Source of the DNA: Escherichia coli
GTDB lineage: Bacteria; Pseudomonadota; Gammaproteobacteria; Enterobacterales; Enterobacteriaceae
Reading direction: 5' to 3' (one strand)
Length of the DNA stretch: 64,000 bases
Assembly (NCBI RefSeq): GCF_050920415.1
Contig: NZ_CP169309.1
Below are positions 60,086-60,436 of the stretch, piece by piece. A program made the translations under genes and the position numbers. Below the pieces are notes generated by a model. The model saw only the letters and a program-made list of their open reading frames with translations, was not told where the DNA came from and did no database searches. Each line of letters starts with the position of its first letter. Position 1 is the stretch's first letter.

Positions 60086-60228
60086 GCCTTTCAGCATGTT
60101 GTTTTTGTTGATTTTATAATCAAAAAATTCATTAAAAAATTTACATAACGCTGTAGCGCCCGTCATCCGTACGCTCTGCTTTTTACTTTGAGCTACATCA
60201 AAAAAAGTTCAAACATCCTTGATGCAAA

Positions 60229-60276
60229 GCACTATATATAGACTTTAAAATGCGTCCCGACCCAATATGTTGTATT
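60229..60276 (+). promoter_or_regulatory. Candidate paired NrdR boxes in the nrdDG promoter
   Basis: AT-cored palindromes gcactatatatagact (60229-60244) and cccaatatgttgtat (60261-60275) about 31 bp apart, followed by tataat at 60284-60289. Confidence 0.45.
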
Positions 60277-60436
60277 AATCGACTATAATTGCTACTACAA
60301 CTCCCCACGAAAAAGGTGCGGCGTTGTGGATAAGCGGATGGCGATTGCGGAAAGCGCCGGAAAACGAAACGAAAAAACCGGAAAACACCTTTCCCAATTT
60401 CTGTGGATAACCTGTTCTTAAAAATATGGAGCGATC

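Follow-up and report, generated by a model that had tools for sequence, protein, structure and literature searches.

The nrdDG promoter region of Escherichia coli: FNR sites, paired NrdR boxes and a conserved -10-like hexamer downstream of the implied start

Locus and gene context

The promoter region studied here occupies the treC-nrdD intergenic gap, which is 393 bp long (60044-60436), in the 64-kb stretch of E. coli chromosomal DNA that was analysed as a whole (the window). The gene order treR, treB, treC, nrdD, nrdG was taken from the RefSeq annotation of strain MFDS1022581, with which a 601-bp query over the promoter region shares 100% identity; of the 5426 complete E. coli genomes, 5425 gave a match to the same query. 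The inverted repeat and T-run that follow the treC stop codon are probably the treBC terminator, and a simple terminator scan did not flag the hairpin at 60050-60087. The nrdR gene is carried by E. coli and is not expected inside the window. For comparison across species, 80 Enterobacterales nrdD loci were collected with the NrdD protein as the query, so that the set carries no bias toward the promoter sequence.

The sequence-only reading had named this region the nrdDG promoter, and both the treC-nrdD-nrdG context and the matches to published probes described below bear this out. We consider it almost certain that the region is the known FNR-activated, NrdR-repressed nrdDG promoter of E. coli, which has already been described. 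The coordinates of its features are collected in Table 1.

Table 1. Features in and around the treC-nrdD intergenic gap. Positions relative to the start follow the FNR site numbering of Roca 2008, as quoted in PMC10425943.
Feature	Sequence	Position	Strand	Relative to start	Remarks
treC stop codon		60041-60043			TreC identity by family scoring of the flanking ORF
Hairpin and T-run after treC stop		60050-60087	+		GC-rich inverted repeat; RNA fold -17.8 kcal/mol, z -2.2
TTGAT-N6-ATCAA palindrome	TTGATTTTATAATCAA	60108-60123		-151 to -136	Spacer of 6 bp, not 4
FNR-2	TTGAGCTACATCAA	60188-60201		centre -64.5	9/10 to TTGAT-N4-ATCAA; reported as the essential activating site
FNR-1	TTGATGCAAAGCAC	60219-60232		centre -33.5	8/10; auxiliary site
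NrdR box 1	GCACTATATATAGACT	60229-60244		-30 to -15	Matrix score 13.7; inside the 57-bp NrdR-binding probe; conserved in 80/80 loci
-10 hexamer	TAAAAT	60246-60251	+		Between the two NrdR boxes, in their linker; placed by the quoted numbering and by conservation
Implied transcription start		60259	+	+1	Arithmetic from the quoted site centres; leader of 178 nt
NrdR box 2	ACCCAATATGTTGTAT	60260-60275		+2 to +17	Matrix score 13.1; inside the 57-bp probe; conserved
Downstream hexamer	TATAAT	60284-60289	+	+26 to +31	8 bp after NrdR box 2
Perfect DnaA box	TTATCCACA	60325-60333	-	+67 to +75	Invariant in the 24-genus alignment
Double DnaA box	TTATCCACA (perfect, 60402-60410) and TTAAGAACA (weak, 60413-60421)	60401-60422	-	+144 to +163	
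nrdD, anaerobic ribonucleoside-triphosphate reductase		60437-62575	+		NCBIfam equivalog NF006732, 1219.8 bits; RefSeq annotation
nrdG, activating enzyme, second gene of the operon		62733-63197	+		RefSeq annotation of the identical strain, coordinates converted

Paired NrdR boxes

The two AT-cored palindromes that had been pointed out from the sequence, at a distance of about 31 bp, are present and lie exactly 31 bp apart from centre to centre, with a linker of 15 bp; box 1 starts 208 bp and box 2 177 bp upstream of the nrdD ATG. Both match the core C-w-A-n-A-T-n-T-w-G, with its central AT, without a mismatch. The operator rule for NrdR is a tandem of boxes with a linker of 15-16 bp, i.e., 31-32 bp between centres.

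A single match of this kind carries little weight, as the 10-bp core CWANATNTWG is not rare (7 occurrences in the window versus 4.7 expected), and two single matches of similar score were found within a coding region, both of which would favour the view that the palindromes are functionless AT-rich sequence that arose by chance. What speaks against chance is the pair. A leave-out matrix was derived from four boxes, those of nrdAB and nrdHIEF (sequences from PMC12176259), with the nrdDG boxes excluded to guard against circularity, and among all positions in the 64 kb it ranked box 1 first and box 2 fourth. The paired score at 31 bp was 26.9, and none of 200 first-order Markov simulations reached it (maximum 19.4). 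Moreover, a box pair spaced 31-32 bp was found in each of the 80 Enterobacterales nrdD loci.

Binding has also been measured directly on essentially this sequence. By microscale thermophoresis, E. coli NrdR bound a 57-bp nrdDG probe with a KD of 160 +/- 37 nM in the presence of ATP and dATP (PMC12176259), and NrdR loaded with ATP alone did not bind it. The probe and 60224-60280 of the window differ at a single base, the last of the linker (60259). The two palindromes are therefore the published nrdDG NrdR boxes, an identity that follows from the probe match, the leave-out pair score and the conservation in 80/80 loci; the same lines of evidence uphold the paired-box assignment made from the sequence. 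A chance origin, already refuted by the published binding and the conservation, has a negligible probability.

The two similar-scoring matches elsewhere in the window are located at 42474-42489 (ATACAATACGTAGTAT, score 13.6) and 42552-42567 (AGACTATATAAAGTAC, score 13.2), and on the leave-out matrix they equal the real boxes. Their spacing is 78 bp instead of 31, and both fall inside a 407-aa minus-strand open reading frame (41957-43180) for which no NCBIfam family match was found. Both are probably chance matches.

FNR sites

Two FNR activator sites, FNR-2 and FNR-1, are located upstream of and partly within the NrdR boxes, as FNR-1 and box 1 overlap by 4 bp. They lie inside the interval 60100-60290 that the sequence-only reading had singled out, and were missed there. 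Both have the canonical N4 spacing and are 31 bp apart, and across the Enterobacteriaceae the distance of each from NrdR box 1 is constant. In most other genera, the FNR-1 position is occupied by TTGATGCAAATCAC, a 9/10 match to the consensus.

FNR occupancy of these sites has been published on the basis of ChIP-seq, EMSA and SAXS. In anoxic SAXS experiments, two FNR dimers were observed on a 54-mer from the nrdDG promoter (PMC10425943), which corresponds to 60184-60237 of the window with one mismatch, outside the FNR sites. An FNR ChIP-seq study (Myers 2013) reported a peak at nrdD with a top-scoring matrix hit, TTGATGTAGCTCAA, that reads as the reverse complement of 60188-60201, and the expression table of the same study gives transcript ratios of 0.36 and 0.27 for nrdD and nrdG, respectively. 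As quoted in PMC10425943, Roca 2008 found site 2 to be essential and site 1 to boost expression.

Counting matches to the consensus was uninformative at the scale of 64 kb, as seven sites with a score of at least 9/10 occur in the window versus 3.4 expected, and 17% of simulations yield a 9/10 and an 8/10 site within 60 bp of each other; the assignment of both sites as real FNR activator sites is thus based on conservation and on the binding reported in the literature. Further pairs of matches to the FNR consensus, each of at least 8/10 and within 60 bp, were observed at 57134/57179 (inside treB) and at 9722/9762. In addition, the FNR ChIP peak reported in the treR/mgtA intergenic region (Myers 2013) falls near window position 55590 by coordinate conversion.

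The upstream TTGAT-N6-ATCAA palindrome

The sequence-only reading had drawn attention to another element farther upstream, TTGATTTTATAATCAA, had described its spacing as not canonical for FNR, and had left the FNR assignment open. The element is present at 60108-60123 as described, and this caution was justified. A functional role for it in the nrdDG promoter, as a site for FNR or another protein of the CRP family, could be argued from its TTGAT and ATCAA arms, which are perfect and inverted relative to each other. Against this role stand the N6 spacer, with which no more than 6/10 is reached in the FNR register, and the position of the element at -151 to -136 in the quoted numbering; the matrix hit of the FNR ChIP-seq study falls at 60188-60201 instead.

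The distribution of the palindrome also argues against such a role. A six-base allele difference at 60116-60125 (ATAATCAAAA in the window versus TCAACCAGCA in K-12) creates the palindrome, and in the K-12 counterpart, TTGATTTTTCAACCAG, the right arm is missing. Among the 5425 complete E. coli genomes, the window allele is found in about 20% and the K-12 allele in about 80%. Furthermore, 60108-60123 lies upstream of, and outside, the block that is conserved among genera. The element is a polymorphic allele and not an FNR site, and we regard a function as an FNR or CRP-family site as highly improbable.

Start site and -10 element

In PMC10425943, the FNR sites are placed at -33.5 and -64.5 with reference to Roca 2008. 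The site centres in the window are 60225.5 and 60194.5, and this numbering therefore implies a transcription start at 60259; the base itself is one that we infer from second-hand numbering and conservation. It is G in the window and A in K-12, G being the commoner base in the other Enterobacteriaceae sequences. Its expected counterpart in K-12 is coordinate 4462838 of NC_000913.3.

With the start at this base, the -10 element would be the TAAAAT hexamer in the linker between the two NrdR boxes. Each of 66 Enterobacteriaceae sequences carries TAAAAT, TAGAAT or TAACAT as this hexamer, and the linker motif TTAnAATGC, nearly invariant in the same 66 sequences, has the highest information content of the region (1.82 bits per position). 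As the box linkers of nrdAB and nrdHIEF are unrelated in sequence to that of nrdDG (PMC12176259), the conservation of TTAnAATGC reflects the -10 element and no requirement of NrdR.

A promoter scan of 59950-60500 returned no sigma70-like pair of hexamers, which fits an activator-dependent promoter and does not separate the two -10 candidates, i.e., TAAAAT and the TATAAT hexamer downstream of box 2. The sequence-only reading had placed both boxes upstream of the -10 hexamer. Under the quoted numbering, the -10 element instead sits between the boxes, with box 2 on the transcribed side of the start. The comparison with the mapped start that had been proposed as a check therefore gave a divided answer under the same numbering, since the NrdR assignment is compatible with this start and the use of TATAAT as the -10 element is incompatible with it.

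The FNR positions raise a further point. With the canonical activator positions taken as -41.5 for class II and as -61.5, -71.5 and so on for class I, the centres at -33.5 and -64.5 relative to 60259, as implied by the quoted numbering, fit neither class. How FNR activates transcription from these two positions has been called 'a remaining mystery' (PMC10425943).

The conserved TATAAT hexamer downstream of the start

The TATAAT hexamer noticed downstream of the palindromes is present. A -10 element was defined here as a hexamer that precedes the mapped start by 5-9 bp and has a -35 partner at 16-18 bp; by the quoted numbering, TATAAT is instead found 26-31 nucleotides into the transcript, and it is without a -35 partner. 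As a promoter element for the mapped start, the hexamer is thus misplaced. It is nevertheless part of a conserved sequence, as the pattern TAnnAT is kept in most Enterobacteriaceae (TATTAT in 20, TACTAT in 14 and TACAAT in 13 of 66 sequences), and the whole block 60276-60298 (+18 to about +38/+40) is conserved across genera, with conservation collapsing right after about 60298.

Several possible causes of this conservation were considered. A conserved RNA element was rejected, as RNAalifold gave no consensus structure for +1 to +52 in 68 sequences. An Rfam scan of 60000-60500 returned nothing above threshold. No third NrdR box over the TATAAT region was found among the top 15 scores of the matrix. 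In the same Rfam scan region, a sub-threshold match to STnc410, a Salmonella sRNA family, was observed on the minus strand at 60099-60163 (15.1 bits versus a gathering threshold of 50, E = 0.8), and was treated as a chance match.

It was also considered that TATAAT may be a functional -10 element after all, with a start near 60296-60297, or, in a weaker version, that it may serve a second promoter or a sigma70-dependent pause beside the mapped promoter. Such a start would give a geometry in which both NrdR boxes are upstream, box 2 covers the -35 region, and FNR-1 and FNR-2 lie at about -71.5 and -102.5 as class I activators; a start at 60297 in particular gives FNR-1 a canonical class I distance. 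In K-12 (NC_000913.3), a start driven by TATAAT would be expected at about 4462800-4462803. The hexamer is perfect in this sequence, T1, A2, A5 and T6, the positions that matter in a -10 element, are kept in the 66 Enterobacteriaceae sequences, and conservation ends beyond about 60298, the place expected for such a start, and is not explained by a conserved RNA structure. On the other hand, the published FNR numbering of -33.5/-64.5, as quoted, implies a start at 60259. There is neither a -35-like hexamer at 16-18 bp nor an extended -10 TG, and the promoter scan was empty. The linker TAAAAT is more conserved than the downstream hexamer (1.82 versus 1.16 bits per position), and the flanks of TATAAT (ATCGnC) show roughly the same degree of conservation as the hexamer, so that the conserved signal may be that of another element. 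On balance, we consider it improbable that TATAAT acts in this way, and TAAAAT is retained as the -10 element.

The published promoter model leaves the conserved TAnnAT block unexplained. A speculative reading, to which we give a small but appreciable chance, is that TAnnAT, together with its flanks to about +38, serves as a functional signal in the DNA, either a second promoter or a sigma70-dependent promoter-proximal pause. If so, the -35 region of the second promoter would lie under NrdR box 2 and FNR-1 would stand at the class I distance of -71.5, and a second promoter or a pause could help to explain how FNR activates from the odd positions -33.5 and -64.5.

DnaA boxes in the nrdD leader

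The leader of nrdD contains DnaA boxes, which are already known. A DnaA ChIP-seq study (Microbiology 2024, PMC11317965) reported, in its accessible part, a peak upstream of nrdD with the double box tTTAAGAACAggTTATCCACAg, which has the same sequence as the minus strand of 60401-60422. For the nrdD region, that part of the report gives the double box only, whereas the window has a second perfect box at 60325-60333 that is equally conserved across genera. The perfect 9-mers TGTGGATAA at 60325-60333 and 60402-60410 are the only two in the 64 kb and are 77 bp apart, and almost every Enterobacteriaceae locus has two perfect boxes at these positions, with 77-79 bp between them.

A different layout was observed in Yersinia, Edwardsiella, Hafnia, Limnobaculum, Dickeya and Serratia (loci L071-L083, e.g., L077 and L081), in which a double DnaA-box motif, TTATCCACAnnnnCATCCACA, abuts NrdR box 2 in an orientation opposite to that of the E. 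coli DnaA boxes. A single FNR-like site, located 39-50 bp upstream of box 1, was found in most of these loci, and several lack such a site. Judged from the sequences compared, DnaA input to nrdD appears to be ancient, with a layout that differs between groups.

The leader also contains a direct repeat, with copies at 60350-60365 (GAAAGCGCCGGAAAAC) and 60371-60386 (GAAAAAACCGGAAAAC). The repeat is present in E. albertii and is not conserved in other genera.

A model of nrdDG regulation

The sites can be combined into a model of nrdDG regulation. Under anoxia, dimeric [4Fe-4S] FNR binds FNR-2 and FNR-1, at -64.5 and -33.5 in the quoted numbering, and activates a promoter that has a weak -35 region, the -10 element TAAAAT (60246-60251) and, by the same numbering, a start at 60259. 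NrdR with bound dATP and also ATP or ADP is a tetramer and binds both 16-bp boxes, whose centres, 31 bp or approximately three helical turns apart, would place them on the same face of the DNA. Judging from this geometry, bound NrdR would bracket the -10 element and the start and should keep RNA polymerase out. As box 1 and FNR-1 share 4 bp, NrdR may also compete with FNR at site 1, as proposed for Salmonella, and the DnaA boxes in the 178-nt leader add a third, published input.

The binding of FNR and NrdR to these sequences and the derepression of the Salmonella promoter upon box mutation have been shown in the literature; steric repression is the mechanism that we infer. The nrdDG promoter is a classic example of how a gene essential for anaerobic life joins the signals of oxygen (FNR), the dATP/ATP pool (NrdR) and replication status (DnaA). 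The copy in the window keeps every recognised site intact, and its significance goes little beyond annotation. Two points are left over by the current model: the mechanism by which FNR acts from -33.5/-64.5, and the conserved -10-like hexamer, which the quoted numbering puts at +26 to +31.

Comparison with known promoters

The K-12 nrdDG promoter (Torrents et al. 2007, Rozman Grinberg et al. 2025) represents the same locus as that in the window. Both FNR sites, both NrdR boxes and the -10 element are identical base for base, the mean column identity over 60030-60450 is 97%, and there are no indels from FNR-2 to the ATG. Substitutions in the core were found at 60208 (T here, C in K-12; between the FNR sites), 60259 (G here, A in K-12) and 60301. 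Neither these three substitutions nor the allele at 60116-60125 touches a recognised site.

The nrdDG promoter of Salmonella Typhimurium (Panosa et al. 2010) has two NrdR boxes, of which the NrdR1 box overlaps one FNR site, and box mutations change repression. The layout is the same as in E. coli, and the S. enterica loci in the collection (L009 and L011) keep every element at the same offsets. Differences were found in FNR-1, which is TTGATGCAAATCAC (9/10) in Salmonella but ends in AGCAC (8/10) in E. coli, and in the downstream hexamer, which is TACAAT in Salmonella and TATAAT here.

The E. coli nrdHIEF and nrdAB operators also consist of paired 16-bp boxes with a 15-bp linker, although the linker sequences are unrelated. 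The affinities of NrdR (ATP-dATP) for the nrdHIEF, nrdAB and nrdDG operators are similar (138, 113 and 160 nM, the last for nrdDG), and the co-regulators reported for them (PMC12176259) are Fur and IscR at nrdHIEF, DnaA and H-NS at nrdAB, and FNR and H-NS at nrdDG.
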